A stretch of 64,000 nt of DNA from a virus (Duplodnaviria > Caudoviricetes): positions 28,041-92,040 of the IMG/VR virus record IMGVR_UViG_3300037067_008637; one strand, 5' to 3'. The notes beneath the pieces were generated by a model that saw only the letters and a list, made by a program, of their open reading frames with translations, made no database searches and was not told the origin of the DNA. The position numbers and the translations under genes are program-made. Below, piece by piece: positions 24,540 to 60,614 of the stretch (position 1 is the first letter of the stretch; every line of letters starts with the position of its first letter).

Positions 24540-24920
24540 TTAGGTATCCATGCAACCAAAAACAATGTGAGGAGTTGAAGTAACAGAAGGAAGTAAATCG
24601 GTTAGGTGTTTTTTCCAACTGGATATTCCAGAAGGTATAACATCCGATTTATCTACAATACAATCATCTTGATTCATTACTCCAACACCAATAACAACAA
24701 AGCTTTCTCCACGAATCGCATATATACCTCTTGGAAGATCTGGAAGCATGAATCTTCCGTATTTGTCTTTTCTGTTTTCCCATTCTCCCTTAGAAGAAAT
24801 TCCTAATGCATTCCATATATCTGCCTGAGCATCATCCCATTTGTATATAGGAAGTTTCCATCCATATATGACAAAGGATGTAGAACTGCTATTGCTAACA
24901 AAACCTTGTCTGAATTTCAT
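24540..24920 (-). CDS. NSSS-motif family protein 1
   Basis: MKFRQGFVSNSSSTSF. Confidence 0.75.
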   Translation of the reverse strand: MKFRQGFVSNSSSTSFVIYGWKLPIYKWDDAQADIWNALGISSKGEWENRKDKYGRFMLPDLPRGIYAIRGESFVVIGVGVMNQDDCIVDKSDVIPSGISSWKKHLTDLLPSVTSTPHIVFGCMDT

Positions 24921-24931
24921 TTACAATCTCC

Positions 24932-25105
24932 TTAATAGTCAATTTCATCTATACGGTAATCTGTAACCGTCTGTGCTTCATCTATTGCGTCTAACAAATT
25001 ATCAGCTTCCAATTCTACATCACGCTGTTCTCTACTATGGTATGATACATAACTCACATGAAACAATCCGGTTTGATCGTCTAAATACACAGTTGCTGGT
25101 TTCAT
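24932..25105 (-). CDS. Small hypothetical protein (57 aa)
   Basis: Manual translation MKPATVYLDDQTG...; ATGA overlap with the topoisomerase stop; fills the gap exactly. Confidence 0.5.
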   Translation of the reverse strand: MKPATVYLDDQTGLFHVSYVSYHSREQRDVELEADNLLDAIDEAQTVTDYRIDEIDY

Positions 25106-26439
25106 AACTTAGCCAAAAGCTCCTTGTAACTGTCAGTTGTAACAGTATTGATATTTCCTAATTGTGTAGTGTAATCTGCAATCTTTTGTTTAGCATCTGT
25201 AATATCCGTATTTACAGTGAGCAGTTTACGAATTTTGTATTTGTCAACAACATCGCGAACTTGTTCTTCTTTTAGCTTAGCACAATTGGCTAACCCTACT
25301 ATTATTTTGTCCACATCAGGTATTGACAGAAATTTGGGAAGGTGGGGTTTAATTGCTGCAATAACGGATAGTTCATCTACAACATCTTGAGTTTCTTGAA
25401 TTTTTCGAGTCGCGTGGGCAGAAATAACTTTTTGATAAAACAGATAAGTATTCATTAACATATCATCGACACAAGTATTGACAATGTTGTCTTTTTCATC
25501 TACCACATAAATATCATACGTAATAGATCCTTGCAATCTATCTTCGACTGCTTCAACCAATTTGTCAAATATATCTTGTCGATTTCTTGCTCTGGATACT
25601 TCAAATCTTATCTTTGTTCCTACTGACGCACTCGACTCATCTAAGAAAGTAACGTCTCCCTTACTAATAAGATCCCATTGCTTGTATGTGTCAATTCGAT
25701 TAAACAGATTATCAAATGTAGTCTTTGGGGACCAACCATGAATATAAACACGGAAGTTTGTTTTGTCTACACTGTAAGTCCCCATTAGATCAACTTTACA
25801 TTTTCCAGGAGTAGTTAGTAAGGTTTTCAAAGTTTCCTTATCAGAGGTGATTGTACAACCCTGAATATTTGGAACAATGACTGGTTCCTTTTTCTTTTCT
25901 CCAAGAAGAAACAACAATCGAGTGATTAAGTCTGATAACTTATAATTTGGAATTTCTGTCTTGAATCCAAATCCAATCATGCTCATCCCATACATGAGAA
26001 ATAAACAAAATGGAATCATAGTAGGTAACACTACAGGCTCGGGATCCAATTCATCAGATTCCCAAGGAACATCCTTAATATATTTGAATGCCAATTCCTC
26101 AACAAAAGGATGCATCTTCAATCCTGTGTAGCGAGGAGCGGCGCAAGACATCGTGCATGAACCAATTCTAACACCCCAATTTCCTTTACCGACAATCAAA
26201 GCATTATGTACCAATAGTTCAGCAGTGCCTTGAATTGCTTCGGAATGTGGATGCCAATGTCCAATTACATATCCAAATATTTGAGCCGACTTTTTGAATT
26301 CACTTTTTGCAATGACATGTGTACCTAAAAGGATTCTTCTCCAAACAGGAACAAGTCCATCTAACATATGGGGAAACATTTTTCGGCGGCATACATAATC
26401 TCCATATGTTTTGTATAACTGAGGAATCAATGTTTGCAT
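25102..26439 (-). CDS. Type IIA topoisomerase subunit A (GyrA/ParC/gp52-like, no C-terminal domain)
   Basis: DGLVPVWRRIL, WHPHS, catalytic AAPRYT. Confidence 0.9.
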   Translation of the reverse strand: MQTLIPQLYKTYGDYVCRRKMFPHMLDGLVPVWRRILLGTHVIAKSEFKKSAQIFGYVIGHWHPHSEAIQGTAELLVHNALIVGKGNWGVRIGSCTMSCAAPRYTGLKMHPFVEELAFKYIKDVPWESDELDPEPVVLPTMIPFCLFLMYGMSMIGFGFKTEIPNYKLSDLITRLLFLLGEKKKEPVIVPNIQGCTITSDKETLKTLLTTPGKCKVDLMGTYSVDKTNFRVYIHGWSPKTTFDNLFNRIDTYKQWDLISKGDVTFLDESSASVGTKIRFEVSRARNRQDIFDKLVEAVEDRLQGSITYDIYVVDEKDNIVNTCVDDMLMNTYLFYQKVISAHATRKIQETQDVVDELSVIAAIKPHLPKFLSIPDVDKIIVGLANCAKLKEEQVRDVVDKYKIRKLLTVNTDITDAKQKIADYTTQLGNINTVTTDSYKELLAKL

Positions 26440-26455
26440 ATCACTTCCTTTTGTC

Positions 26456-28258
26456 TCAAGACAATGTCCATTCACCCATTACAAGTTGCTTTCTCGCTTC
26501 TGCGCTGGACATTAAATCAAAGAGTTTTTCTTTATGTTCTTCACACCATTGGACTTGAATCAATCTGCGGGTACTGTTATCCATGGCTACATATTTCAAA
26601 TCATTAGCATCAAACTCCCCAAGTCCTTTAAATCTCATTAAGGTATACTTAGAATTTCTGATGTCATCAATTTCTTTTTGTGTCCAAAGTGGTATGAATT
26701 TTTTATCTTTCTTGTACCCATACAACGGAGTGCTGCATACATACAATCGTCCTGCCTTAACCACAGGAGGCATTTTGTAAGCGAACAGTGTTATTAGTAG
26801 AGATGTAATCCAATGTCCTGCAGGATCCGCATCCGCTGCTAATATGATTTTACTATATCTTAGATTACGAACATCACACTGAGCTTCAATTCCACAACCG
26901 CATGCAATGATTATATCTTTCAATTCTTTATTTGTATGAAAATCCTTTTTGGTTATCGCATTGGGAATAACGCCTTGCAATCCAAGAATCGCGTGGACCT
27001 TTGGATCGCGAGCCATTACCAAATTGCCACCAGCAGAATCTCCTTCACAAATAATAAGCTCTCCACCTATCTCTGTACAATCGTGCAGTTTAGTCAGTGT
27101 TGTCATTCCTCTCTTTTTAGAAGAAGTACTTTTCACACCGACTAAAGACTTATTAGTAATTGCTGCTCTGTAATTATGAAATCTCTCTAAAAGCTCATCT
27201 AATTCTTCTTTGTGTTCTTTGAAATATGCTATCAATTTAGTTTTGAAACTATCTAACATAGCCAAATCAGATCTAGAAGAAAGACGATCTTTTACTTGTT
27301 CTGCAAATGCTGCTGATACGATTCTCAAATCAATATATAAACGAAGTCCGGTAAGAGAATCGTTTGCTTGAAATGTGAAACTTTTTCCGGCTGCATCTTG
27401 AAAGAATTCTCTAATTACTTTTAACACATGATTGATGTGAGCACCGGATTCCACACGGCAAAGATTGACAGTTGTAAAACATTTTTGAGACGCAGGAGGT
27501 TTATCATCCCATGCCACACGAATGTCATACCCTTCTTGCCCTTTGGTTTCTGTAAACTTTAACCAAGTAACGCCATTCCCGATGTAATTTAAAATCAAAT
27601 CATCTACGCTTCCTTCAATTACTCTATCCTCTCCATCTACTCGAAACACAACTTTGAGCTTAGGAAAGTTAGCGACAGCAATACGTAGGCGTTCCTCAAT
27701 TCGTTTGAGATCCACTTTTGTATCTGTGAAATATTTGGTAGACGGTTTGACTTCTATTTTTGTTGAGAACGGCTTCTTGTCTTTGTGAACTTCTTCTGTT
27801 CTGTCAATTGACCCATCATGCTTAAACATATACATTGCATGCTTATTATCTCGAAAGATATCAACATTCATATATTCGCTTAATGCATATACCGCACTCA
27901 ATCCAACTCCATGTAATCCTACAGCAATACCATATGCGTTATCTGAGCCTTTCTGAAATTTACCAGAAGTGAACAGTTTTGTGCAAGCCATGATAGGAGG
28001 ATCTTTATCGAGTGGAAGAGATTGATCAAATGGAAACCCGCGACCATTGTCTAATACCTTAAAATTCTTTTCTTTGGTGTCAACAAACACACCAACGATT
28101 GTAGCGAAATTGTTTTGAACTTCATCTAATGAATTATCCAATACTTCTTCAAGAAGTCTTGTTGCTGTTTCTGCATCTCCTACATACATTCCACTGTGTT
28201 TACGCAGATGATCAATTTCACTCATCTGCACAATTGATGACGCATCATAATGTGCCAT
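26456..28258 (-). CDS. Type IIA topoisomerase subunit B (GyrB/ParE-like)
   Basis: EVLDNSLDE, DNGRG, GLHGVG, EGDSA, DADP, RFKGLGE. Confidence 0.93.
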   Translation of the reverse strand: MAHYDASSIVQMSEIDHLRKHSGMYVGDAETATRLLEEVLDNSLDEVQNNFATIVGVFVDTKEKNFKVLDNGRGFPFDQSLPLDKDPPIMACTKLFTSGKFQKGSDNAYGIAVGLHGVGLSAVYALSEYMNVDIFRDNKHAMYMFKHDGSIDRTEEVHKDKKPFSTKIEVKPSTKYFTDTKVDLKRIEERLRIAVANFPKLKVVFRVDGEDRVIEGSVDDLILNYIGNGVTWLKFTETKGQEGYDIRVAWDDKPPASQKCFTTVNLCRVESGAHINHVLKVIREFFQDAAGKSFTFQANDSLTGLRLYIDLRIVSAAFAEQVKDRLSSRSDLAMLDSFKTKLIAYFKEHKEELDELLERFHNYRAAITNKSLVGVKSTSSKKRGMTTLTKLHDCTEIGGELIICEGDSAGGNLVMARDPKVHAILGLQGVIPNAITKKDFHTNKELKDIIIACGCGIEAQCDVRNLRYSKIILAADADPAGHWITSLLITLFAYKMPPVVKAGRLYVCSTPLYGYKKDKKFIPLWTQKEIDDIRNSKYTLMRFKGLGEFDANDLKYVAMDNSTRRLIQVQWCEEHKEKLFDLMSSAEARKQLVMGEWTLS

Positions 28259-28282
28259 AGATCCTCCTAGGCGGCGATGTGA

Positions 28283-28642
28283 CTACATAATTTCTTTGCA
28301 ATTATGATTTTGTAGTTTTTTGAAAAACTCTTCTTCCGATAAGTTACCATATTTCATTTCAGCTTTAGCTAAAATAACGATTAAATCCATTCCCGTTCTT
28401 TCTGTAAAACTTGTACAGGACCAATATCCAAATGGGCAACCATGTCCTAAAATATATTTGATTCCTAAACGAATTCTTTCCCATAGAGTACGACTTACCG
28501 GCAATTGAACTTCCATCCACAATCCTAATTCTTCGTCCTCTTGACTAGTATCATTCGGATTGTAGACAAATCTGATAACGTGTTCCGCACAATCGCAGAC
28601 ACAATCAACATAATATTTCTCAAATGGTTTTAATTGGCTCAT
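28283..28642 (-). CDS. Hypothetical protein
   Basis: ORF with CxC..H motif. Confidence 0.5.
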   Translation of the reverse strand: MSQLKPFEKYYVDCVCDCAEHVIRFVYNPNDTSQEDEELGLWMEVQLPVSRTLWERIRLGIKYILGHGCPFGYWSCTSFTERTGMDLIVILAKAEMKYGNLSEEEFFKKLQNHNCKEIM

Positions 28643-28664
28643 GTCTTTTCCTTAATTGTTTGTA

Positions 28665-29847: not shown

Positions 29848-29854
29848 GTGACTA

Positions 29855-30181: not shown

Positions 30182-30298
30182 GGTATACCTCCGTTTACTA
30201 GTGAGAGTGATCGAACGATTTGAAAAGACACAGCGTCTTTCTATACATCTTCTTTCACTCATTCATGCAACAATCATTCATTCAGAAGTTGCATATAT

Positions 30299-30736: not shown

Positions 30737-30803
30737 TGTTGATTCTCCCTCTTTTGCGGTTTTGAATTTGTCCGCAAATATGGTGAAACAATCAGCAGCT
30801 GAA

Positions 30804-32114
30804 GTGAACTACTGGTCCCTAAAGGAACCAGCTTCCTGCGTTGCCGCAATACTATCCGAAAAATCGGAATGATTCTCCAAATAGGCCTGTCCCAGGCAAA
30901 GTATGTTTTTGGCCGCATTGACATCTCTATCTTCAACATAACCGCAACTGCAACTCATAGTTCGATCAGAAAGCGGCATAGTGTGCAACTTTCCGCAATT
31001 GTTACACATTTTGCTGGTATTATATGGATTGACTTCTATGATTCGGTTGCTCTTGTATTTTAAGAACGATATCAATTGACCCAAACACGAATTTCTCAAT
31101 TCTCTATTTAATCCGGTTATTTCACTTTCTGACATTTTCTTCAATTGAAGATTTTCAATAACAATTGTATCAAATTTTTGAGAAAGGTTATAAGAAACCT
31201 TATGCAAAAAATCCGATTGTTTTCGGCTCTTTGCATCATACAATTTATTGATCGTCTTAGAAAGAAAACGCCATTTTCTTGAGTATTTTTTACATTTCTT
31301 GTCTCTCCTTGATTTCAGTTGATTGATTTGTTTATCAAAATATTTTGCATGATTTTTGTTCTTAATGATTTCACCATCAGATGTTGCAACAATATTAGTG
31401 ATACCGAGATCAATGCCAATAATTGAATTACTTGTTTCTACGGATTTCTTTTCACCCTCGGACGTGATACAAATATACCATTTATCGTCTTTCGTTGTGA
31501 TGTATAATTGTTTGATAGTTCCTTGTATTTCTCTGTGCTTAGAAATCTTAATTGATCCATATTTCGGAACTTTTACGTGATTATCCAAAATCTTGAAATG
31601 AAGTGATTGTGGATAGCAAATTCCAAAGAATTCTCTGCAGGATCTGAATCTTGGATAACCTTCTGGTTTTCCATCTTTACGAAGATCCAATTCCTCTTTG
31701 GAATTCCTAAGGAGATCATGAAATTTGTCGAAAGCTTTTTGCAATCTTAATGGAACTTGTTGCAACACCTGACTATGAATCTCCAAAAGAGATGGATCAT
31801 CTTGTTTTAATGAAACCAATTCCTGTTGCTGATCATATCTAGTAATTTCATAATCACCTGTTAGATTTCTTTGTTCTAAGAAATAATTGTACAATCGATT
31901 AAGACGATTGGCGTGAGTCCAAAGCTTCCTTATCTGATCCTGTGTAGGATAAGCTCTGAACTTATAAGTAATCATTCGTCTTTCGAAATCCTTTTTGTTT
32001 TCAATATATTCCTTTAGAATCATTATATTGTAAGTTTGTTCTGCTTATTTCAAATGGGTTTATATATGAAAATTATTCGTCACCTACTGCCTAAAGGCAG
32101 AGGATTTCTTCTTG
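30804..32114 (-). mobile_element. tnpB-only IS200/IS605-family element
   Basis: Left hairpin CTGCC-TTTA-GGCAG; right end AAGCTGGTTCCTTTAGGGACCAGTAGTTCAC; left boundary approximate. Confidence 0.65.
30809..32023 (-). CDS. tnpB: TnpB RNA-guided nuclease
   Basis: YKFRAYPT, GIDLG, VIENL, TSKMCNNCG, DRDVNAAKNI. Confidence 0.93.
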   Translation of the reverse strand: MILKEYIENKKDFERRMITYKFRAYPTQDQIRKLWTHANRLNRLYNYFLEQRNLTGDYEITRYDQQQELVSLKQDDPSLLEIHSQVLQQVPLRLQKAFDKFHDLLRNSKEELDLRKDGKPEGYPRFRSCREFFGICYPQSLHFKILDNHVKVPKYGSIKISKHREIQGTIKQLYITTKDDKWYICITSEGEKKSVETSNSIIGIDLGITNIVATSDGEIIKNKNHAKYFDKQINQLKSRRDKKCKKYSRKWRFLSKTINKLYDAKSRKQSDFLHKVSYNLSQKFDTIVIENLQLKKMSESEITGLNRELRNSCLGQLISFLKYKSNRIIEVNPYNTSKMCNNCGKLHTMPLSDRTMSCSCGYVEDRDVNAAKNILCLGQAYLENHSDFSDSIAATQEAGSFRDQ

Positions 32115-32117
32115 AGG

Positions 32118-32501
32118 TTAATTATCTGAGATTGATCCGAACATATATTTAGGAGCACCATATTCGGTAGTGGGAACAGGAAGAAGTTGGTTGACGCGTC
32201 TTTTCCAATCAGGAAATGTCTCGGCTAATCTATCGGGAACTGTGTCGTATCCGTCACTTCCCACGCATCCAACTCCTACAATCAAAGTTTCATACCCAAC
32301 AGCAGTTGTGATTCCTTTAGGAAGCTTATAATTGACTAATTCTACATTGCTCCACCATTTATCACACCATTCATCCCTGCCAATACCCAAAAATTCCCAA
32401 AATGCTGCATCATCCTCATAATCCCTGACATTCAATTCCCATCCACAAATTACAAAAGAAGTGGAACTAGAATTTGATACGAAACCACAACGAATTTTCA
32501 T
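32118..32501 (-). CDS. NSSS-motif family protein 2
   Basis: MKIRCGFVSNSSSTSF. Confidence 0.75.
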   Translation of the reverse strand: MKIRCGFVSNSSSTSFVICGWELNVRDYEDDAAFWEFLGIGRDEWCDKWWSNVELVNYKLPKGITTAVGYETLIVGVGCVGSDGYDTVPDRLAETFPDWKRRVNQLLPVPTTEYGAPKYMFGSISDN

Positions 32502-32514: not shown

Positions 32515-32886
32515 TTAGCATGGATATGTTCCAGTGAACAAATGAGGAGGTCCTACCAATCCAAAGTGTTCTCCCCAAGGCATAAGTTGATTAATCCAGT
32601 CAGAAATATCTATATCTGATTCATCCAATCCGCCTTCGTCCTCACCAGTGATTGTTCTTCCAAAGAACATTCCGATTTCATTAATATGTCTAACTGATCC
32701 AAAACTCTTTCCTTCCTTGGAAGAGATCATATCAATAGAATCGCATTCTTCACATCCTAGAGTTACACAATCGTCGCAAATAAACTTCTGACAAACTTCT
32801 TTCGGATCAGTTTCCTTCAATTTCCATCCAAGGAAAACAAAAGAACTACTAGAAGAATTTGATACAAATCCCGTTCTAATTTTCAT
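32515..32886 (-). CDS. NSSS-motif family protein 3
   Basis: MKIRTGFVSNSSSSSF (start reset to the motif Met). Confidence 0.75.
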   Translation of the reverse strand: MKIRTGFVSNSSSSSFVFLGWKLKETDPKEVCQKFICDDCVTLGCEECDSIDMISSKEGKSFGSVRHINEIGMFFGRTITGEDEGGLDESDIDISDWINQLMPWGEHFGLVGPPHLFTGTYPC

Positions 32887-33277
32887 CTCCACATCTCCTA
32901 CTATAACCATTCAACCGAATTGCAATATCCTCTAATGAGGTGAAGCATTCTCCGCCATTTCTCTTCACCATTTCCCCAACTTGTTTCAAACTCTTAATTT
33001 GAAAAGGGGAAAAGCCATCTTCTAAATAGCAAAAAAGACATTTGTTTGGACGCTTATTACTATCGTCTATCACTTCAGCAATACTATAGACACCCGTCAT
33101 TTCAGATGTGATAACATACAAACAAAAATCACATGATGCTCTCTGCCTAAGCTCTTCAATCATAAATTCTGGAGTCCAATCATCCACAACAGGATTGAAA
33201 TAATCAATCTCTAACATAGGGATGAGTTTTTCTCTCCAAGTGCTATTATTGCATGTTCCGCCCAAAAATACTTTCAT
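32876..33277 (-). CDS. Nucleoside 2-deoxyribosyltransferase-like domain protein
   Basis: KVFLGGTCN.STWR, YFNPVVDDW, SIAE. Confidence 0.7.
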   Translation of the reverse strand: MKVFLGGTCNNSTWREKLIPMLEIDYFNPVVDDWTPEFMIEELRQRASCDFCLYVITSEMTGVYSIAEVIDDSNKRPNKCLFCYLEDGFSPFQIKSLKQVGEMVKRNGGECFTSLEDIAIRLNGYSRRCGDEN

Positions 33278-33286: not shown

Positions 33287-33667
33287 TTAACCCAAAGCAT
33301 CTAATATATACACTCTTGGTTCTTTATTTTCAATCTCCTCATCAATTCCTAATTTCTCTGTAGGAGTAAGCCAACTTTGCCAATCCCTCAAAGGTTCTCC
33401 ATCATCAGAAGAATCAGATACACCTATATAGTTTCCGATATAGAAACAATCATCCTCGTTACAAAATCCTAAGTTCTTTTCATAAAGAACATCACAAATT
33501 GCTCCAGTAATATTATTATCGGACATACCAGGATCAAGCGTTTCTCCACATAACTTGGTGAATAATGCCCGCAAGGATTCTGTATCTTTTGGCATTGGAT
33601 ACTTCCATCCACAAACCAAGAAGGATGATGTGGAACTATTACTTACAAAACCTGTTCGAATTTTCAT
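33287..33667 (-). CDS. NSSS-motif family protein 4
   Basis: MKIRTGFVSNSSTSSF. Confidence 0.75.
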   Translation of the reverse strand: MKIRTGFVSNSSTSSFLVCGWKYPMPKDTESLRALFTKLCGETLDPGMSDNNITGAICDVLYEKNLGFCNEDDCFYIGNYIGVSDSSDDGEPLRDWQSWLTPTEKLGIDEEIENKEPRVYILDALG

Positions 33668-33668: not shown

Positions 33669-34046
33669 TCAGTCGTGCCACGCATCTTGATGAAAAGACG
33701 GTTTAACATCTTCTGATAGTCCCAATAACTTCCTAATTTTTTCCGCTTCTTCAGCCATATGTGAAGGATCCGTATTACCGGAAATTTTCACACCAAGGTA
33801 AACACCATCACAATAAGGAGGTTTCTCAGTCATATCACTGTAACCCAAATCATCTTCAAACCAACCCTCAAGTTCTTCTCCATCACAATCATCCGCAATA
33901 TTTGCGTTAGGATCAATCACTTTGATAAAATTGATTTTTCCCATTCTCTCTGCAATGGCATTGATTTCCTCTTCCTCGAAATACCAGCCATAGATACAAA
34001 AAGACGATGTAGAACTATTGCTTACAAACCCTTGTCTGATTTTCAT
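33669..34046 (-). CDS. NSSS-motif family protein 5
   Basis: MKIRQGFVSNSSTSSF. Confidence 0.75.
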   Translation of the reverse strand: MKIRQGFVSNSSTSSFCIYGWYFEEEEINAIAERMGKINFIKVIDPNANIADDCDGEELEGWFEDDLGYSDMTEKPPYCDGVYLGVKISGNTDPSHMAEEAEKIRKLLGLSEDVKPSFHQDAWHD

Positions 34047-34058: not shown

Positions 34059-34469
34059 TTAGAATGAATCCCCATGTACAATGATTTCGCAACCGTAAAC
34101 TTCAACCTGTTCTGTTCCTACTGACGCAATTGCTGATTCAATTTCATTACCATTATCTGTGGCTGCATTACAACGCAAAAGAATCTTACCATTCGCAAAA
34201 GCATTTTTTGCACTGTCTAATTGCTCATCATATTCTCGTTCAAATGATTTTCTTTTCTGTTCATCCATCTCATCACTCCAATAATCACTGAACAACCAAT
34301 CATAAAACTCTTTATATGTTTTGAATGTTGTTTCATCCGAATCACGAAGATCCACAACAGGAATTTCCAGTGTTACCGAAATGACAGCATCACCCATATG
34401 AAGAGGATCAACGGCAACAACGAAACTGGTGGATGAACTGTTGCTTACGAATCCGATACGAAGTTTCAT
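34059..34469 (-). CDS. NSSS-motif family protein 6
   Basis: MKLRIGFVSNSSSTSF. Confidence 0.75.
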   Translation of the reverse strand: MKLRIGFVSNSSSTSFVVAVDPLHMGDAVISVTLEIPVVDLRDSDETTFKTYKEFYDWLFSDYWSDEMDEQKRKSFEREYDEQLDSAKNAFANGKILLRCNAATDNGNEIESAIASVGTEQVEVYGCEIIVHGDSF

Positions 34470-34477: not shown

Positions 34478-34780
34478 CTAAGAACCCACAAGGTTAGTTA
34501 TATTTTCATCTGGAACCCCAATTTCATGCAAAAATTCCACCAGGGGAAAATTGTCTATACAAGTGAAACATTGGAAGAAATCTTCTCCCTCTTTGATATC
34601 CCATTTGACATTACATTTGGGTTTTCCCAACCATGGATGTGTTCTCTCCCAACCGGGAATCAACTTATAGAACTTGTCATGGTTTCTCACCTTATTCATC
34701 TGTGCTTCTGACAATCCTGTTTTCAAGAGAGTGAAACTACAGGATGAACTATTACTGACAAAACCAATTCTCACTTTCAT
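34478..34780 (-). CDS. NSSS-motif family protein 7
   Basis: MKVRIGFVSNSSSCSF. Confidence 0.75.
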   Translation of the reverse strand: MKVRIGFVSNSSSCSFTLLKTGLSEAQMNKVRNHDKFYKLIPGWERTHPWLGKPKCNVKWDIKEGEDFFQCFTCIDNFPLVEFLHEIGVPDENITNLVGS

Positions 34781-34792: not shown

Positions 34793-35185
34793 TCACCTCA
34801 AAGATTCCCATTCTTTCCATTTCCAATTATTTCGTTTTCCTCCATCTCTCAATTCATAATCAAATATTTTCCCCAACATATCACCTTGTTCGTCTCCGAA
34901 AATCCACGCACAACTCATTCCCGGAAGAATTGTATAAATCCTTTTGTTCTTCTGAAAACGGTTCTCTGCATCAATAACCATTATTTTGTAAGCATCCCCC
35001 AAAGATTTTTCATCATATGTGGATGCTCCATGATTGATATCTCCATACTTGTCAATATAACTTATCAATCTCTCTCTACCAACATCCCGTACAAAATCAA
35101 CAAGCGTTCTCGAAATCTTTGCGTTGTTTTGTATCATAAAGGACGTTGATGAACTATTGCTCACGAATCCAATACGAATTTTCAT
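34793..35185 (-). CDS. NSSS-motif family protein 8
   Basis: MKIRIGFVSNSSSTSF. Confidence 0.75.
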   Translation of the reverse strand: MKIRIGFVSNSSSTSFMIQNNAKISRTLVDFVRDVGRERLISYIDKYGDINHGASTYDEKSLGDAYKIMVIDAENRFQKNKRIYTILPGMSCAWIFGDEQGDMLGKIFDYELRDGGKRNNWKWKEWESLR

Positions 35186-38315: not shown

Positions 38316-38837
38316 CTAATGATGAGATATTTGCATTCCATCCCATCGATTGAACGTTCCACCGTGTTCTAACTCCGCATTAAGATCCCCTTCATTGTCA
38401 CTATATTCAAAGAACAAAATGAATTTTCCTAAATGTTTTTGAATCCACTTATCTGCTAATTCCCCAAATACTTCGGATCTTATTGCACTTTGTTTATCAC
38501 ACCATTTGTTGTATTCTACTTGATATAGTGCCTCAGTAGCATAATGGTTACGGTTGGGAGAAGTATTCCATCCAACAGATTTGAGTCTTGGATCATTTTC
38601 GGCTTCATACAAATATCCTGCTTCAAATTCTTTTTTTATTTTCTTCACTAATTCATTGTAAAATGCAGAATCCGGTTGAAGTCTTATATGATATTGCGAA
38701 GTGATATCATTGAATACTACACTGGCTTTTTCTACTCCCAATGATTTTTTTAGATCCTCATATGTAGGAATTGTATCAAAGGGAACCATGAAACTTGAAG
38801 AACTACTATTACTTACAAATCCCATTCTGATTTTCAT
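38316..38837 (-). CDS. NSSS-motif family protein 9
   Basis: MKIRMGFVSNSSSSSF. Confidence 0.75.
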   Translation of the reverse strand: MKIRMGFVSNSSSSSFMVPFDTIPTYEDLKKSLGVEKASVVFNDITSQYHIRLQPDSAFYNELVKKIKKEFEAGYLYEAENDPRLKSVGWNTSPNRNHYATEALYQVEYNKWCDKQSAIRSEVFGELADKWIQKHLGKFILFFEYSDNEGDLNAELEHGGTFNRWDGMQISHH

Positions 38838-40181: not shown

Positions 40182-41249
40182 CTAGATATCATATATTGGG
40201 CAATGAAAGTTACCAGTTAATTTTCTAGCAATCATCTTATTACGCCACTTGACAATCACACCGGAATACCAAACATCTACCAGAAAATCATTACAATTAA
40301 CTACATCAATTCCATCTATGAAATCATCATGAGCTTTCTCACAGAAACTACAAGGAAAGTATTTACCGTCCACATTGATATAAGACGAGAACATTCCAAA
40401 CGATTCACAGGGTTCAATACAATACATGTCCATAGGAGTAGCTGCACCAGAAGACAAATACCAAGGAGAAGAACAACTATCAAACCCAATAGCTACTTTC
40501 TTTTCTTGGGCATGTTCTACTAACTTACGCCATTCCTCTGTATCTCTGAGAGGTGTTTGAGTGTTGCGTTCACCTTTGGGCTTTAGCAACAAGAACACAA
40601 TGGCATTCAGCTTGACAAGCCTTGGATCGGTTGTTGCATCATCGATAGTCTTATGGCATTGAGCTAACTTCTCAACCGAAAGAATTTGGTGAATATTTAC
40701 CTGCTTCATTCCACGATTGGTAAGTTCCTGAATTGCATCATAACAAATATCCCCATAATTACTAACCGCAATTGCACCACAAAGCTCCGCAAACTGATCA
40801 AACTCCTCTGCCGTAGCTTTTCCATTAATAGTAATGTTCGGCGCTACATTTGGATTGTAATCATTTTCTCGACAATAACGCATGATCCTAAACAAATCTT
40901 CGTTTGCAGAAACATCTCCAATTCCAAATGCAATCTGACTAACAGTCAGAGGAAGCTTATGGAATATCTGTTTGAATGTTTCAAACGACATATTTGTTCC
41001 TACTGATGTGTTTGTCTTATAGCATTCCCGGCAGGGTTTACCATAAGGACCAGAGCACACCGTACTTATCTCCATATCACAAATCTCTGGGCCATAAGGA
41101 GAAAACAGAGGATCATCCTTTTTGTTTACTCCCCAACGAACAAAAAATCCAGTCTTCTCATCCATGATCCAATTGTATGTATCCGACTTAAACATTTTCT
41201 TTCCATCAATACTTTGCACATGTTCATTAGCTACTTGCATGTTAATCAT
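40182..41249 (-). CDS. Radical SAM protein with SPASM/Twitch-type C-terminus
   Basis: CSGPYGKPCRECY (CX7CX2C); C-terminal CES...YINVDGKYFPCSFC and CP. Confidence 0.85.
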   Translation of the reverse strand: MINMQVANEHVQSIDGKKMFKSDTYNWIMDEKTGFFVRWGVNKKDDPLFSPYGPEICDMEISTVCSGPYGKPCRECYKTNTSVGTNMSFETFKQIFHKLPLTVSQIAFGIGDVSANEDLFRIMRYCRENDYNPNVAPNITINGKATAEEFDQFAELCGAIAVSNYGDICYDAIQELTNRGMKQVNIHQILSVEKLAQCHKTIDDATTDPRLVKLNAIVFLLLKPKGERNTQTPLRDTEEWRKLVEHAQEKKVAIGFDSCSSPWYLSSGAATPMDMYCIEPCESFGMFSSYINVDGKYFPCSFCEKAHDDFIDGIDVVNCNDFLVDVWYSGVIVKWRNKMIARKLTGNFHCPIYDI

Positions 41250-41291: not shown

Positions 41292-42156
41292 TTATCCAAA
41301 AATTCTTTCCGGTAGAGTTTTTCCAAACCAAGTAAACCCCGACGCTTGCTTGTGTCCACCTCCACCAAAACTTGCACACAACTCGGATACATCAATGCCT
41401 TTTTTATCTGTATACATGCTGAATTTCCAATCAGTTCCATTGAAATAAAAACTCAGCATTATATCATACTTATCAGAATCCCAAACACTTTCAAATGTCA
41501 ACGAACTTACAAGTGCTCTATTTAGAGCAATACATTTATACTTTCCATCAAGAGTACATTCGAATGATGTTCTGCACGCCATTTTATCAGAATTCTCAAC
41601 ATACTTCTGGATGATCTTTCCATCTTGTATAAGTTCTTTTATACGAGGAACATCATTTGCTATAAGCTTTTGCCAAATACCAGAATCTATTCCTGTATAT
41701 TTTGAATCTAATCCATAATGAAATGGTTTTGTATCCTCGTCATGATTCCAAATATCATAATTTGATACTAACTGAATTCCCCCATGGAACTTCTCCATCG
41801 TGTCCTATTGGAACCCCAAACCATTTATATGTCAGATAGCAGGCGGCGTGATTCGTTAATCTATAACCGATTGGCTCAAACTTCGCATTTTCTGCTTCTT
41901 TTATTTTAGAAAGATGATGATCAATCCAAATCATATGGCAACGGTGATTCAAATCTTGCATCTCATTCCAAGCAAACGAAATGTCCAAAATATACACAGT
42001 AGAGCCATTTGGAATACCATCAAAATCATATGGGTCATCATGATTATATCCAACCATCATTGGTTCTATGCTCCGCTTCCTTAAAAAGTGTTGGCAAATT
42101 GCTCCGGACAATCTTCCATCATGATCTGCTTTGTGATAAAATACATATGTTTTCAT
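41292..42156 (-). pseudogene. DHH/DHHA1 phosphoesterase split by a one-base frameshift
   Basis: YH.ADHDG, ILD and WIDHH in the 5' ORF; YDIW and GGGGHKQASGF in the 3' ORF; removing one G of the G5 run (41779-41783) fuses them. Confidence 0.8.
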
Positions 42157-42433
42157 TTGTTTCCTCTTTGACTTTCTCGAAAGAACATTCATCTTTTTTT
42201 CTTTCTTCTGCTCTAGTAACAGTACACATCATCGTTGGGATAATTGGTTGAGGAGAAATCATCACTTTGTATCTTATCGATCCTGTAAGATGATATTGTT
42301 TGACATAATCATATGCAACCTTCTTACAGTCTCCAAAGCAAACATCTCCCACTAGTTTTATCACTTCTATAGTTACTGGTGTTCCGGATGATGTATCAAT
42401 AATTGGAATTACAAAATAATCGGATTCATTCAT
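42119..42433 (-). CDS. Hypothetical protein
   Basis: Coupled ORF. Confidence 0.45.
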   Translation of the reverse strand: MNESDYFVIPIIDTSSGTPVTIEVIKLVGDVCFGDCKKVAYDYVKQYHLTGSIRYKVMISPQPIIPTMMCTVTRAEERKKDECSFEKVKEETNENICILSQSRS

Positions 42434-54413: not shown

Positions 54414-54422
54414 ATTGAATTG

Positions 54423-54731: not shown

Positions 54732-54741
54732 ATGGTTTCTC

Positions 54742-55143: not shown

Positions 55144-55147
55144 TTTT

Positions 55148-55507: not shown

Positions 55508-55745
55508 AATTTCAGTCCTTCTATCTTGCAGGTGATTCCATGAATTGACGGCAACAATAAGCCGAGCAAAAATCATAGTTCTTCGTTTGCCCATTACAAC
55601 GATCAACAGAATTAACAGTCATACTAATCCATCCTGGAAAACCACTATTTCCAAATTTTTCAGGATTAAAACTTTCTTCTTTTTTGCATTGATCACAAAT
55701 TCTCAGTTCAAGTTTTTGTTTCATTTCTGTATCCTTTTTATTGAT

Positions 55746-55830
55746 TGGAGGAAGGTGAGGGATTCGAACCCCCAAGCCCGAAGGCGTCTGCTTTCGAAGC
55801 AGATGGATTAGCCAATTATCCTAACCTTCC
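55746..55830 (-). tRNA. tRNA-Ser(CGA)
   Basis: GGAAGGT/ACCTTCC acceptor, TCTGC-TTCGAAA-GCAGA anticodon arm, long variable arm, TTCGAAT loop, encoded CCA. Confidence 0.9.
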
Positions 55831-56148
55831 GTAATCAGATTGATATCCAAATATTTTGATATTTCTTTTCTTGCTTTCTCTCGATAATCTTCAACGACGC
55901 AAACAGGACAAGTGCAAGGCAAATTAACACAATCTCCACAATGCTTAGGAGCAGTTTCCAGTCCTGCTACCCAACCATCATATGCACGTTTAGCATCTTC
56001 AAATGTTGTAAAATCTCTAGTTGCATCCTGTGGATTTCCTTCAATTTCAAACGATGCATCCACAAGAATGTCGTCCAGATATACTAACACTGCGGCAATT
56101 TCATCAAGAGACGATGGATCTTTAAAATTATTCATTTCTTTTCCTATC

Positions 56149-56484
56149 TTAGTTGAAAAAGGTTCTCTCGAACATTTGTGGTTTTGGCAGATTGTTTTCT
56201 GCGGCACACTTATCCAACAAGCTCATGTCCAATTCTGATGGATCAGAACATTTATAATCTCTCCAATCTTCATCCTCATTCATATTGTGATCAATATCAG
56301 TCTCAACAGTTCCAACTCCAATAATATCATCGTCATCCCCACCGTACGTCTCAACGAATGGTAGATTTGCTTTTCTAAAAATCTCATAGTATCTACCATA
56401 TTCTTCCCCATCATCAAACGAATATCCATATATGCAAAAACTAGTAGCAGATGAATTGGATACAAACCCTTGTCTGATTTTCAT
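56149..56484 (-). CDS. NSSS-motif family protein 10
   Basis: MKIRQGFVSNSSATSF. Confidence 0.75.
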   Translation of the reverse strand: MKIRQGFVSNSSATSFCIYGYSFDDGEEYGRYYEIFRKANLPFVETYGGDDDDIIGVGTVETDIDHNMNEDEDWRDYKCSDPSELDMSLLDKCAAENNLPKPQMFERTFFN

Positions 56485-56726
56485 TATATTTTTTTCCTTA
56501 TAGCTGGATCCCAATGATCATATACTGGAAGAGAAACTTTATGACAATCACAGTTTCTCCAATCTAATGGAAGATGTATTCCAGGACCTCGTTCCATATA
56601 CATATTATGTTTTTCTAACCAAGATTTTCCAAAAGAGGCCCTATTGACTTGTTGATCGGTTAAGATAAATTCACCTTTTTCATTAAACAACATATTGGAA
56701 CCTTTCATTGAAAGATTAATTTTGAA

Positions 56727-56809
56727 TGGCGGAAGAGACAGGACTTGAACCTGCAAGGCCGAAGCCGGTAGAATAGCAATCTACTGCCTTACCATTAGAC
56801 TACTCTTCC
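56727..56809 (-). tRNA. tRNA-Ser(GCT)
   Basis: GGAAGAG/CTCTTCC, GTAGA-TTGCTAT-TCTAC, variable arm, GCCA end. Confidence 0.9.
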
Positions 56810-56815
56810 ATTTCT

Positions 56816-57172
56816 TCACAATATGAATCTTGGGATTTCTTTTACAGAATAATCCGTTAGATTCAAAACATCTATCAATTCATTGAACACATCCATTGGT
56901 TTAGTATTACCACAAGTGAATATGTCCATAGCAATTAATCCTAAATCTGCATAACTATGAGCAGAACAATGACTCTCATCCAACAATATTACTAGAGCAA
57001 AACCTGGGGGACTATTATGCCCCAAATGATATCTTGCTTGAGACAATACTGTAGCCCCCGCGTGTTCAACCGCAGCAACTAACACTTTCAAAAATCTTCC
57101 GTCATCTAAACATATATCTTCTGGAACATTTTTGAAATCTACAATCAAATGGGTACCTTTTGCCTTTTCCAA
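56816..57172 (-). CDS. speD: S-adenosylmethionine decarboxylase proenzyme
   Basis: GTHLIVD, LLDESHCSAHSY self-cleavage motif, DIFTCG. Confidence 0.9.
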   Translation of the reverse strand: MEKAKGTHLIVDFKNVPEDICLDDGRFLKVLVAAVEHAGATVLSQARYHLGHNSPPGFALVILLDESHCSAHSYADLGLIAMDIFTCGNTKPMDVFNELIDVLNLTDYSVKEIPRFIL

Positions 57173-57513
57173 CTCATATAACCTCCCAGGACAGTCATGT
57201 CCGATTTTTGATTGACAAAGCTAGTACGCATATTTTGCTTTGGCAGATCAGATCTTGTTAGTTGAGCATTTCGCTCGTATGTATTATTTGTTCAGATCTT
57301 CAATTGATCATTTCTTGTTACATTTTTTGACTTTCCAGGCATCTACAATCAAACCTTTTCCCAATTCAAAAAAGGTATCTCCACCAGCAGCTTGTATGAT
57401 GCTCTTGACTTTCTCTTTGGTGAAGTCAACAAATACATTCTTTTTGGGTTTGACTGTATCCCCGACTTTGATTGATTTGTCATAGGTTTGCATGATGTCA
57501 CCTTTTTTGAGTT

Positions 57514-57588
57514 TGGCGCTTCGTAGGGGAATTGAACCCCTGTTTATGGATCGACAATCCATTGTTCTTGCCACTGAACTAACGAAGC
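57514..57588 (-). tRNA. tRNA-Asp(GTC)
   Basis: GCTTCGT/ACGAAGC, ATGGA-TTGTCGA-TCCAT, GCCA end. Confidence 0.9.
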
Positions 57589-57591
57589 AAT

Positions 57592-57678
57592 TGGTACCGG
57601 AGAAGAGATTTGAACTCTCACTACCCTACTGGGTATCTGCTTTTGAGACAGACGTGTCAGCCATTGCACCACTCCGGC
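57592..57678 (-). tRNA. tRNA-Leu(CAA)
   Basis: GCCGGAG/CTCCGGT, TCTGT-CTCAAAA-GCAGA, variable arm, ACCA end. Confidence 0.9.
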
Positions 57679-57884
57679 AATGTTGAAAAACCATTGCAAT
57701 CAAAGGATTGACTGGATGATTTGGCGGATGATCCTTGATTGCTGCTTGCAATATTTTCGCAATTTCTTCTTTCGTCACTTTGTTTTTCCTCTTGATGCTG
57801 GTTTGAAATGATGAGCATGAAGGATCTCACGAATCGTTCCTGATTGTTACTTACAGATGGGATTCGAACCCATAGTTACCAAGT

Positions 57885-59003
57885 TCATAAAAGAACATAT
57901 AATTGCTCTACAGGAACTTTGGCTTGGCAACCGGCACCATAGGGTCCGGTAAGAAATCGATTCAGAATATTTCTTGCGGCATTAACATCCGCATTGGCAG
58001 TATAACCACAAGACTGACAAAGAAATATCCCTTGTGACTTTCGGTTTCTTTTATCGATTAGGTTGCAGACTGGGCAAGTTATGGATGTATTAAAGGGGCT
58101 GACGCTTGCGTAAGAAACACGGTTTCTTTCGCAAGCGAACTTCAACCTCTGCATCCAATAAGCTTGATTCCAATTACCGATAACGGATCTCATAGACTTG
58201 TGAAGTCTCTTAGATTTCTTGGTATTTTTCGAAATGCCTTTGAGATTCTCAAAGACAATTAATGAGCCATGCTTTACGACTTCTTTGGCAGTCAAGGAAA
58301 TGTAGGACTTTAAGTCGACTCTGGCTCGTTTTTGACCCTTAGAACCGTTCTTGCACCGTTTGATTCTCTGAATCTTGGATTCCAATTCAGTTCCTAAATG
58401 TTCACCAGTTGAAAGAGCCGCCAGAGATTTGATTCCAGTATCGATTCCGATGCAGGAATCAAATGGTAACTTTGGACCGGTTTCTATCTCGAATGAAAAC
58501 TGAACATGATTTCTTAGAATTTGGACCGTTGTACAGAGTTTCCCTTCTTCCATTAATTGATTAAAATGTTTATGTCGTCTGATTGGAATGTCAAATATGA
58601 TCTGGTTTCCGATAGATTGAAGGTGTAACCAATTGTCGAACTCTTTAGTGTTTTTTGGTAATTCAAAGAGAGCAATTGATTTTGAGAGAATCATTCGATT
58701 TCCGAAATGGGCCGGTTTAATTGGCTCCTCTTCGGCTTCCTCCGCTTGCGCTTTGGCAGCAGAAATCATATCAATTGCTTCTCGGGCCGAATTTTGAATC
58801 ATTCTTTGTGAAAACCAAGTGGACTCTTTCACCAAATTTAGAACGCCCTTTAGCAGATCTATCTTTTTAGGAGTATTCTCCCAAAACAGATCGATAAAAA
58901 GATTGACAACTTTAGTATATTCTGCCCGAATAACTTCCAGTTGTTCTCTTTTTTCTGAAGTCATATACTTCAGATTGCATTTGGATGATCTAATGATTTT
59001 CAT
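57885..59003 (-). CDS. tnpB: TnpB RNA-guided nuclease (third lineage)
   Basis: GIDTG, VFENL, TSITCPVC/CQSCG, NADVNAARNI; no CCTTTAGG end hairpins. Confidence 0.9.
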   Translation of the reverse strand: MKIIRSSKCNLKYMTSEKREQLEVIRAEYTKVVNLFIDLFWENTPKKIDLLKGVLNLVKESTWFSQRMIQNSAREAIDMISAAKAQAEEAEEEPIKPAHFGNRMILSKSIALFELPKNTKEFDNWLHLQSIGNQIIFDIPIRRHKHFNQLMEEGKLCTTVQILRNHVQFSFEIETGPKLPFDSCIGIDTGIKSLAALSTGEHLGTELESKIQRIKRCKNGSKGQKRARVDLKSYISLTAKEVVKHGSLIVFENLKGISKNTKKSKRLHKSMRSVIGNWNQAYWMQRLKFACERNRVSYASVSPFNTSITCPVCNLIDKRNRKSQGIFLCQSCGYTANADVNAARNILNRFLTGPYGAGCQAKVPVEQLYVLL

Positions 59004-59107
59004 AACGAATATTCAACTTCTCCCTTGGGTTATAATTTATTCTCCTAGGATTTTTAGAATTTCATACATTCAATTATGAAAGGATTGTTTCTATTCAATA
59101 CAATGAT

Positions 59108-59484
59108 TGGCTTACGGGCCGGGAGTCGAACCCACCACACCGTCGTGTGTCCACCGAGGATATTCTCCGCTACACCAAATTGTATTCTATCCACATTCTC
59201 TCATCAAAAAATCTATAATCGTCTCTCCGATTTGTCACGCCTTCAGAACTGTCTCTTCTCCCCGACAATTCATCTCGAATATCTCAGTCTTCCCCTCACG
59301 AGAAAAACCGCATGATATCGTAGTTTGTCTATTCACATTTAGTCGGCGTTCACTTGTTGCTTTTCCAAATAGGCCTGGATCTTATAGTCAACCTGCTTCC
59401 TATAAGAGTTCCGATTCTTGTTTTATCTGCATTGAGCAGAGGCGCCTTGCTGCGCCACAGACAGGCGGAATAAGATCTTATCCT
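59108..59484 (-). ncRNA. Candidate structured RNA with tRNA-like 3' end
   Basis: ~375 nt without a minus-strand ORF of 60 aa or more; ends GGGTTCGACTCCCGGCCCGTAAGCCA; several hairpins. Confidence 0.4.
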
Positions 59485-59862
59485 CTACTCAGTTGGATTC
59501 GTTCCTAAACCAACTAGTACAGGAATCATCGGAAATAGTTCATCCTTTACCATATCGAGCAGATAAGGAATAATGCAATCATCTGTTTCTTCATCATTAT
59601 TTAGTTCATCCAAAGATGAATATTCCTCTAAGACAATCCCGAGAAACTTAGCCAAAGCATCATCATCCGACTCAATTGCTTCAATCTGCTGCAAAATTCC
59701 CTTATAGGCACAAACTGCATATTTCGCAACTCCCCATCTGAGCATATTTTCGACTTGCTCGTCCGGTTCAAAATTGAGAACATCTGCATCCTGATCAAGC
59801 AATGCTTGTTGGCTTTCGATCAGTCCATTAATTGCATCAATTAGTTGCTGCTTCTTAACCAT
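59485..59862 (-). CDS. Acidic hypothetical protein
   Basis: AGGAG RBS. Confidence 0.5.
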   Translation of the reverse strand: MVKKQQLIDAINGLIESQQALLDQDADVLNFEPDEQVENMLRWGVAKYAVCAYKGILQQIEAIESDDDALAKFLGIVLEEYSSLDELNNDEETDDCIIPYLLDMVKDELFPMIPVLVGLGTNPTE

Positions 59863-59897
59863 TTTAGATTTCTCCTGTAAGTGTACTAGTTAAATAA

Positions 59898-59974
59898 TGG
59901 AGCGGATAGTGGGATTCGAACCCACGAAAAAACTAGAATGGAAATCTAGCGCCTTACCACTGGGCCATATCCGC
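59898..59974 (-). tRNA. tRNA-Gly(TCC)
   Basis: GCGGATA/TATCCGC, CTAGA-TTTCCAT-TCTAG, TCCA end. Confidence 0.9.
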
Positions 59975-60012
59975 CATGAATTTACAATTTATTCACATTC
60001 GGCTTGAAACAA

Positions 60013-60234
60013 TCACTTTCCGTGTCGAATTACTTCTCTTAGTTCTTCAATATCTCGTTTACATTCTTTTCTATATCTTAACCTTTTCAATCTATTTTCA
60101 TCTACTTCATCAATAGGTTCTGAATGTTTGTTATGTTTTATTCCGAATGTGCCTACACAAATACCAGAAATGAAAACCAATAACACAATGAATATTCCTA
60201 TTCCAGCAATACTAACTATCATAGATACCTCCAT
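60013..60234 (-). CDS. Small membrane protein
   Basis: N-terminal hydrophobic helix. Confidence 0.5.
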   Translation of the reverse strand: MEVSMIVSIAGIGIFIVLLVFISGICVGTFGIKHNKHSEPIDEVDENRLKRLRYRKECKRDIEELREVIRHGK

Positions 60235-60247
60235 GATTGATCATAAT

Positions 60248-60324
60248 TGGAGTCTGGGATGGGATTTGAACCCATGATGAACAGTTTTGCAGACTGTCGC
60301 CTTACCGGACTTGGCTACCCAGAC
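60248..60324 (-). tRNA. tRNA-Cys(GCA)
   Basis: GTCTGGG/CCCAGAC, ACAGT-CTGCAAA-ACTGT, TCCA end. Confidence 0.9.
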
Positions 60325-60350
60325 ATGAAAGTTTTTCCTGGAGAGATGTA

Positions 60351-60614
60351 TCAGTCATCCCATTCGACAACATCGGGATTCACTCCAATAGCATCAAGAA
60401 ACTTTGACATTGGAAAATTATTCATAATGGTGTATCCTCCAATCGTCAGAGCATCTTCTCGAATATTGTATGCATCCTCTCGAGAATAAAGAACTTCATC
60501 CATGCGAATATTATGAGTTCGAATCATATCTATTTGTTGTGGAGTCAACTTCTCTTTCTCAATCACAAAACTACTTGAACTTGAATTGGATACAAATCCA
60601 TTACGAATTTTCAT
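60351..60614 (-). CDS. NSSS-motif family protein 11
   Basis: MKIRNGFVSNSSSSSF. Confidence 0.75.
   Translation of the reverse strand: MKIRNGFVSNSSSSSFVIEKEKLTPQQIDMIRTHNIRMDEVLYSREDAYNIREDALTIGGYTIMNNFPMSKFLDAIGVNPDVVEWDD

Follow-up and report, generated by a model that had tools for sequence, protein, structure and literature searches.

Why should eleven small phage proteins with highly divergent bodies open with practically the same 16 residues, and what reads that opening? The question is raised by a 64,000-nucleotide stretch of DNA (hereafter the window) from a virus of the Caudoviricetes (IMG/VR record IMGVR_UViG_3300037067_008637, positions 28,041 to 92,040 of that record), in which eleven minus-strand open reading frames (ORFs) begin at residue 1 with MK[IFLV]RxGFVSNSS[STA]xSF, here called the tag. 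The tag was found to be accompanied, near-obligately, by an enzyme of the radical S-adenosylmethionine (SAM)/SPASM type, which the window encodes at 40182-41249. We consider it likely, with some reserve, that the tag is a handle for this enzyme.

The Tag in the Window

The eleven copies were obtained by a six-frame search of the window. When the same six frames were scanned with a 20-residue hidden Markov model (HMM) of the tag, the copies scored 39.6-47.4 bits and the next best frame 6.5 bits; hence the window holds exactly eleven, and chance is no explanation for them. Twelve of the 16 positions (M1, K2, R4, G6, F7, V8, S9, N10, S11, S12, S15, and F16) are identical in all copies. Across the copies, each serine position of the tag is encoded by both AGY and TCN codons, and the third positions of the 16 tag codons are 51% identical as compared with 85% for the residues, which indicates that selection acts on the peptide. 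A Shine-Dalgarno-like sequence lies 5' of most of the tagged ORFs. Their products consist of 87-173 residues, of which the isoelectric point (pI) is below 5 in seven and below 7 in ten, and six of them contain [YCL]G[WY] at residues 19-21. The bodies without the tag separated into nine BLAST clusters.

A preliminary description of this DNA, made by inspection, had reported eleven small, mostly acidic proteins with a near-invariant 16-residue start, and the HMM scan and the pI values agree with it. It had also placed seven copies within 32.1-35.2 kb, where they do cluster with one untagged ORF interrupting them, and had ascribed the conservation to the peptide and not to a DNA repeat, as the codons confirm. 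The body subtypes it had noticed were recovered as well, since copies 7 and 11 fall into one BLAST cluster and the [YCL]G[WY] stretch recurs in six copies. The word "paralogues", by which it had joined all eleven, overstates the relatedness of bodies that form nine clusters.

Spread of the Tag and Diversity of the Bodies

A profile search of 1.84 billion representatives detected 24,380 tag-bearing proteins at E <= 1e-3, counted as protein clusters at 50% identity, and 1,941 at 1e-10. A word-indexed search with the alignment of the eleven sequences gave 126 proteins, nearly all possessing the same start and very different bodies, some of which are Cys-rich and zinc-ribbon-like. From the fetched loci and the search matches, 386 unique tagged proteins were gathered, the lengths of which range from 69 to 300 residues. 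The location of the tag is strict, as in 355 of 359 cases an ATG or GTG start codon preceded F7 by exactly six codons. The collected proteins gave 101 BLAST body clusters (63 singletons), and for the 19 clusters with at least four members, a profile-profile probability above 50% was obtained in only 2 of 171 pairs. The tag is therefore the sole element that is common to all of them. Also considered was an acidic loop, D[DEN][DE]G, close to the C-terminus, as it occurs in 58 sequences of several clusters versus 13.5 in shuffles; counted per cluster it is not enriched (17 versus 12.1 +/- 2.9), and it was rejected as a second universal motif.

No family was assigned by a Pfam scan to ten of the window copies, nor by Pfam, PADLOC, and NCBIfam to the tagged proteins tested in each. 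A PHROGs scan of the same ten copies returned phrog_7397, a family of unknown function, which nine of them match over only the first 18-38 profile positions. The full-length match was given by tagged protein 9 (38316-38837, minus strand, 173 residues, pI 5.7), which aligns over residues 1-173 with positions 1-170 of the 170-position profile (E 3.3e-11) and shares approximately 30% identity with hypothetical proteins of 22 T4-like phages. This type of body was also present in RB16, RB43, and KP15-like phages, and RB16p111 is a member of the 173-residue subfamily. With no function or partner on record, phrog_7397 represents one body family among many. In the alignment of the 173-residue subfamily, D147, E157-H158, and H173 are invariant within a C-terminal SDNEG...LEHGG...ISxH stretch. 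These residues look like a metal-binding or catalytic site, and this body may be an enzyme itself. Separately, some database proteins (P0244-P0251) carry two tags, at residue 7 and at residues 38-183, which may be neighboring genes fused via a missed or recoded stop, or real tandem-tag proteins.

A Radical-SAM/SPASM-Type Enzyme Accompanies the Tag

The conserved partner of the tag is a 355-residue protein encoded on the minus strand at 40182-41249, which was recognized from its Cys motif, its homologues, and its co-occurrence with the tag. Its scores against PF04055 (Radical_SAM) and PF13186 (SPASM) were 13.9 bits (E 0.064, cut-off 29.5) and 11.9 bits (E 0.29, cut-off 21.5), respectively. More than 2,050 homologues were found, many with PF04055 and/or PF13186, and many of the PF04055 carriers share approximately 50% identity with the window enzyme. 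Within 120 homologues, C65-x7-C73-x2-C76 as well as C259, C281, C300, and C350 are conserved at 98-100%. The CX7CX2C spacing is unusual, the canonical radical-SAM motif being CX3CX2C, and the C-terminal set of four invariant cysteines looks twitch-like, less like a full seven-Cys SPASM domain. The nearest NCBIfam models were peptide-, protein-, and cofactor-maturing radical-SAM/SPASM families, all far below their cut-offs, and the only solved relative by sequence was BtrN, a related dehydrogenase, at an insignificant E value of 0.05. Neither a protease nor an exporter was conserved beside the tag arrays.

Starting from the enzyme, 16 of 17 IMG/VR loci contained one to eight tagged ORFs at a distance of up to 10 kb, all co-oriented with the enzyme gene and most of them immediately downstream of it, and the 17th record carries 12 variant tags elsewhere, so that all 17 records are tag-bearing. 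Starting from the tag, the enzyme was detected within 10 kb in 41 of 63 loci, some of which are near-identical pairs. Of the 22 remaining records, 15 encode it in another place, among them all 8 with a completeness of at least 90%, and the 7 records without it are fragments that are 2-38% complete. One enzyme is accompanied by 1-15 diverse tagged proteins per genome. Among 50,697 GenBank phage records the enzyme was identified in 172, which include RB16, RB43, KP15, KP27, Miro, and many Klebsiella, Enterobacter, Cronobacter, and Citrobacter phages. RB16, RB43, KP15, and one related record have exactly two tagged proteins each, approximately 20 kb from the enzyme; for RB16 these are RB16p106 and RB16p111, which lie together with the enzyme RB16p156 in an early-type minus-strand region. 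An enzyme homologue was also found in all five of the tag-bearing cellular genomes tested. The co-occurrence of the tag and the enzyme is thus near-obligate.

Concerted Variation of the Tag and the Enzyme

In a complete 321-kb record, 12 of 12 tags read M[IFLV]RxDFVSNSSSxS[FYH], a form without K2 and with D in place of G6, and D6 was also found in four of four tags of a second viral record. The bodies of the 321-kb record are homologous to canonical-tag bodies elsewhere (E values of 1.7e-16 and 2.5e-6 for two families), which means that the variant tracks the genome and not the body family. The enzymes of the two viral D6 records form a clade in a 60-row tree, with a Shimodaira-Hasegawa-like approximate likelihood ratio test (SH-aLRT) support of 100 and a stem of 0.54. 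Residue Q183, located in a conserved QVNIH strand of the enzyme, is invariant with G6 viral tags and is H in both viral D6 enzymes. Four alphaproteobacterial plasmid enzymes possess K at this position, the tags of which read MK[IL]K[ML]DFVSNSSSTSF, while S, V, or I occupies it in bacterial enzymes with G6 tags. Position 6 of the tag is accordingly D in 12/12, 4/4, and 4/4 tags of three record sets, and K, N, S, and A were each observed in single copies. The charge-compensating change between D6 of the tag and position 183 of the enzyme is suggestive of a contact, though it is no proof of one. When the enzyme of one D6 record (L016) was used to search for more systems of this type, only L016 itself was recovered. 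A glycyl-radical site at G6, for which R4-x-G6-F7 resembles RVxG[FY], is excluded by the D6 lineages together with the single K6, N6, S6, and A6 tags.

The preliminary description had proposed a motif HMM and a tabulation of co-occurring genes, and these identified the radical-SAM enzyme as the conserved partner. From its candidate partners, the E1 that belongs to a ubiquitin-like operon of the window was rejected, as no more than 1 of the 10 near-complete records with tags possessed it. T4-like tag carriers such as RB16 have, to our knowledge, no multisubunit RNA polymerase. The radical-SAM enzyme is therefore the only listed partner that qualifies. The same description had pictured a common handle on a diversified library of cargo, which gains support from the 101 body clusters, the strict residue-1 position, the conserved partner, and the concerted variants. 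The opposite outcome it had reckoned with, one ordinary domain with no conserved partner, was not what was found, since a partner exists and the bodies are diverse.

Predicted Structures of Two Tagged Proteins

Model structures were constructed with AlphaFold2 for the 173-residue copy (38316-38837, 26 relatives) and the 125-residue copy (33669-34046, 83 sequences). The former gave a mean predicted local distance difference test (pLDDT) score of 89, with values below 50 for residues 1-6, a mean of 45 for residues 1-10, and a first strand at residues 13-20. The latter gave a mean of 77.6, with residues 1-12 in coil, a mean of 50 for residues 1-10, and a strand at residues 13-24. Both models continue from the first strand into helices and a second strand, after which come a helix and a third strand. 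The tag residues 1-12 are hence predicted to be a free arm joined to the first core strand and not a simple buried strand. Fold searches found nothing meaningful for either model. The best E value of Foldseek in the PDB was 0.59, and the highest Z scores of VIA-align wide were 3.2 with the 125-residue model and 5.1 with the 173-residue model, the latter for a helical stretch only, so that neither was matched to a solved fold.

A Sister Form in Bacterial Operons

The tag is rare in cellular genomes, for which 91 pattern matches and 17 confirmed loci were obtained from 185,579 genomes. Contigs in bacterial and archaeal bins carry it, some as phage-like arrays of as many as 14 tags in 8 kb. In the densest array seen, 14 tagged genes lie within 8 kb of a 26-kb contig of a metagenome bin (L083), and the enzyme is encoded by a different contig of that bin. 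A 178-kb contig of a Flagellimonas marina assembly (L082/L102) encodes tagged proteins of 170 and 155 residues with the enzyme approximately 20 kb away, which is the layout of RB16; its enzyme is nearly identical to that of RB16 in the tree, and this contig probably represents the genome of a T4-like phage in a bacterial assembly.

A bacterial operon of a different composition encodes an Avs2-like STAND NTPase with a SMEK N-domain (PADLOC Avs2, E 1.1e-15), a protein of approximately 120 residues, one tagged protein of 131-137 residues, and a radical-SAM/SPASM enzyme. It was found in Verrucomicrobiota, in Acidobacteriota, and on plasmids of Rhizobium, Rhodobacter, and Agrobacterium, and it adjoins restriction-modification genes. 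Its enzyme has the canonical CX3CX2C motif (CDKGCxFC), scores 51.7-53.7 bits for PF04055 and above the threshold for PF13186, and is 27-31% identical to the phage enzyme. The 120-residue protein (L089:7612-8004, L099:6649-7011, L114:5646-6011, and L116:5646-6011) is encoded just upstream of the tagged protein, and an EFL..(A/M)G(V/I) stretch is common to both bodies; it could be an untagged paralogue.

In its component genes this operon resembles the KpAvs2-Avap1-Avap2 operon of K. pneumoniae, which likewise combines an Avs2-type STAND NTPase with a radical-SAM protein and small accessory proteins. The radical-SAM protein is Avap1, which is required for protection from certain phages, and the STAND sensor is bound by Avap2 (Bechon et al. 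2024, PMC11564622). The N-domain is Mrr in KpAvs2, whereas it is SMEK in the sister form. Avap2 is defined by PF19902 (DUF6375), which was undetected in the bacterial tagged proteins and their neighbors, in five viral records, in the Atlas look-alikes, and in the closest homologues of the bacterial tagged body. PF19902 had no match in 401 sampled genomes either, but the controls of that scan matched nothing as well.

Tagged Genes and Their Genomic Setting

The window is part of a large uncultured phage, and megablast against GenBank phages gave no close relative of it. All of its genes are on the minus strand, and those near the tagged copies encode topoisomerase II subunits, a helicase, an NAD-dependent ligase, ThyX, DHH/DHHA1 proteins, and a GluR0-type channel; the tagged genes are thus in a replication/early-type region. 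No STAND gene was detected in the window.

Tagged protein 1 (24540-24920; 126 residues, pI 6.7, HMM 44.1 bits), which carries the tag MKFRQGFVSNSSSTSF at residue 1 and has AAGGAG upstream, is of the GW type, and its body shares a BLAST cluster with that of tagged protein 2 (32118-32501; 127 residues, pI 4.6, GW type, 42.4 bits). The latter is the last gene of the seven-gene array, whose first gene encodes tagged protein 8 (34793-35185; 130 residues, pI 9.0, 41.0 bits), the sole basic copy, with a body belonging to a 13-member BLAST cluster. Between them lie tagged proteins 3 (32515-32886; 123 residues, pI 4.5, 41.2 bits) and 4 (33287-33667; 126 residues, pI 4.2, 42.9 bits), both of the GW type, and 6 (34059-34469; 136 residues, pI 4.3, 42.5 bits), all three with singleton bodies. 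Tagged protein 5 (33669-34046; 125 residues, pI 4.4, YGW type) is in the largest short body family, and it is matched by the body-only HMM of cluster 1 at E 1.9e-5. Tagged proteins 7 (34478-34780; 100 residues, pI 6.8, 41.7 bits) and 11 (60351-60614; 87 residues, pI 4.7, 44.8 bits) are of the NFP...FL..IGV type and share a body cluster that has 26 members among the 386 collected proteins. Tagged protein 10 (56149-56484; 111 residues, pI 4.2) is of the YGY type and gave the highest HMM score of 47.4 bits. All are encoded on the minus strand. The array is split between copies 3 and 4 by an untagged ORF of 133 residues (32876-33277, start MKVFLGG). When 31.8-41.6 kb was scanned for promoters and terminators, they were no more frequent than in shuffles.

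Two TnpB/Cas12f-like genes with OrfB_IS605 and Cas12f1-like TNB domains were identified, one at 30809-32023, directly downstream of the seven-gene array, and the other at 57885-59003, between copies 10 and 11; such genes might contribute to the spread of the tagged genes. Two adjacent overlapping ORFs (41292-42192) immediately upstream of the radical-SAM gene encode DHH and DHHA1 domains and are either a split or a frameshifted phosphoesterase.

A Proposed Handle for Radical Modification and Its Alternatives

The explanation that we hold likely, if not firmly so, is that the tag is a portable N-terminal handle which is read, and most probably radically modified, by the radical-SAM/SPASM-type enzyme of the phage (40182-41249). 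Residues 1-12 (MKxRxGFVSNSS) would form a free arm ahead of the first strand of otherwise unrelated small proteins, and the enzyme would bind this arm directly. A radical-mediated change would then be made, most probably on a residue of the invariant F7-S13 stretch, and one enzyme would in this way mature a library of early, mostly acidic phage proteins. Modification of the arm is the most probable outcome in view of the enzyme class and the invariant small polar residues. Candidate chemistries are Ser oxidation of the anSME/BtrN type (anSME being the anaerobic sulfatase-maturating enzyme), a cyclophane-type cross-link over F7-x-S9, and epimerization. The role of such proteins is probably host takeover or counter-defence, as may be judged from the location of the tagged genes among early genes and from the Avs2-like operons of bacteria that contain the sister form.

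Several observations weigh against this explanation. The charge-compensating covariation comprises two independent events only, and the tag is nearly unchanged while the enzymes diverge to 27-31% identity, a conservation above the need of a simple co-evolving docking site. A distant enzyme homologue of a 462-kb uncultured phage (LR756500.1, L109; 30% identity, long branch of 1.29) has no recognizable tag within 20 kb on either side, and it would act on either a different substrate class or a strongly diverged tag. The Pfam scores of the window enzyme itself are below the threshold for both Radical_SAM and SPASM, and a scan of this enzyme detected no recognition element of the kind known from ribosomally synthesized and post-translationally modified peptides (RiPPs), with no PqqD-like match at E <= 5. 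In the predicted structures, moreover, tag residues 13-16 are inside a core strand, so that part of the conservation could be structural.

The co-occurrence and covariation would be explained equally well if the tag merely docked the small proteins on the enzyme as adaptors. These would be non-substrates, whose bodies serve as interchangeable specificity subunits that bring host or phage targets (proteins, nucleic acids, or metabolites) to the enzyme. The ratio of one enzyme to 1-15 diverse tagged proteins in a genome is in line with this, as is the small accessory protein of KpAvs2, which binds another protein, the STAND sensor (PMC11564622). The invariant S9, N10, S11, S12, S13, and S15, however, are small polar residues that resemble a reaction site more than a docking surface. 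Known radical-SAM/SPASM enzymes, moreover, act on the very peptide that carries their recognition sequence. We regard adaptors as unlikely, though less so than the remaining alternatives. Improbable in our estimation is that all tagged proteins form one very divergent superfamily, in which the motif is the first strand and turn of a common core and the enzyme is a neighbor through shared island ancestry. The beta1-helices-beta2-helix-beta3 order predicted in both models, with residues 13-20 as beta1, and the recurrent D[DEN][DE]G loop (58 sequences versus 13.5 in shuffles) speak for such a core. But residues 1-12, the most conserved part, are unpacked in both models, and the acidic loop loses its excess when counted per cluster. 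Bodies of 69-300 residues, some Cys-rich and zinc-ribbon-like, with an almost nil profile-profile relation, do not suggest a single fold. Nor would shared ancestry of an island account for an enzyme that is kept with tags approximately 20 kb away and in 8 of 8 near-complete genomes, or for tag variants that track the genome and not the body family.

A short, invariant, strictly N-terminal sequence on diverse small proteins is also what known sorting leaders look like, and the tag might be an address for capsid packaging, export, or degradation, recognized by some machinery distinct from the radical-SAM enzyme. This is very improbable, however, since the tag is unchanged in very different phage lineages, in bacterial and archaeal bins, and in STAND-NTPase operons that have no capsid, among which there is no common sorting machine. 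The tagged genes, moreover, are in early-type, non-structural regions, the tag is non-hydrophobic and without a Glu-type cleavage site, and the enzyme is the only gene found to travel with it. The location of the tag sequence at the extreme 5' end of each gene would finally permit the conserved 48 bases to act as DNA or mRNA, for example as a translation enhancer or a recombination site, to which the peptide is incidental. The codon data effectively refute this, and the peptide is conserved over thousands of clusters of different composition, which leaves such an element a negligible chance.

If the enzyme modifies the tag, as we prefer to think, this would be a very large viral protein-modification system, with approximately 24,000 client clusters at 50% identity in many phage lineages. 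A bolder extension, which we put forward tentatively and would not yet rely on, is a general phage post-translational code. The enzyme would turn a Ser or Asn of the arm into a new group, such as a formylglycine-type aldehyde or an F7-S9 cyclophane, on dozens of early proteins per genome and in at least 24,000 client clusters, and likewise in the bacterial Avs2-like operons. Such a natural handle, similar to an "aldehyde tag", would make covalent effectors out of an entire library of small binding proteins. Modification of the tag could also explain the radical-SAM accessory gene of Avs2-type immune operons, and a tag of 16 residues recognized by a single small enzyme could serve as a tool for site-specific protein labeling. 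The proposal is testable with the E. coli phages RB16 and RB43 and with common Klebsiella, Enterobacter, and Cronobacter phages, which have one enzyme and two tagged proteins each, and the bacterial form is accessible on plasmids of cultured Agrobacterium, Rhizobium, and Rhodobacter strains.

Comparison with Known Systems

Literature searches found no paper containing "FVSNSSS", nothing relevant on radical SAM in phages of the RB43/RB16/KP15 type or on phage SPASM enzymes, and no paper that describes the tag-enzyme pair or gives the phage enzyme a role. The tag was compared with three known arrangements. A short conserved N-terminus on hypervariable small phage proteins is also a feature of the T4 internal proteins (IPI-III and Alt). 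The capsid targeting sequence of T4 is MKTYQEFIAE-like, ends in a Glu cleavage site, and is removed by the prohead protease. It has no similarity to the tag, which is without Glu, extends beyond T4-like phages, and is accompanied by a radical-SAM enzyme. Identification of the tag as a T4 capsid targeting sequence was rejected on these grounds, as well as on its presence in bacterial operons without capsid genes.

A parallel is offered by anSME, AslB, and AtsB, radical-SAM/SPASM enzymes whose target is a Ser or Cys within a short motif close to the N-terminus of an entire protein, and one homologue of the window enzyme was labeled AslB by its source. The anSME models of NCBIfam and Pfam gave no score above the threshold for the window enzyme. 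Their target motif, (C/S)-x-(P/A)-x-R, is missing from MKxRxGFVSNSSSxSF, and the clients are not sulfatases and have no common fold. An anSME-sulfatase pair was hence rejected, as no body matches a sulfatase family.

The logic is most similar to that of the RiPP systems (radical-SAM/SPASM maturases such as MftC, PqqE, and SkfB, and ProcM of the prochlorosins as the case of many substrates for one enzyme), where one enzyme likewise faces many genes with a near-invariant N-terminal recognition sequence. The present clients differ in being proteins of 69-300 residues from more than 100 body families, of which the two modeled ones are predicted to be folded. They further differ in having 16 conserved residues at the exact N-terminus and in being encoded in phage early regions, and no RiPP recognition element, protease, or exporter was found with them. 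Membership among RiPP precursor-maturase pairs was rejected in view of the client size, the predicted folds, the lack of a PqqD-like match, and the lack of a conserved protease or exporter. The kinship of the tag and its enzyme is nevertheless to the radical-SAM maturases with leader-bearing substrates, among which they are unusual as a viral system whose clients are probably folded proteins of many folds.

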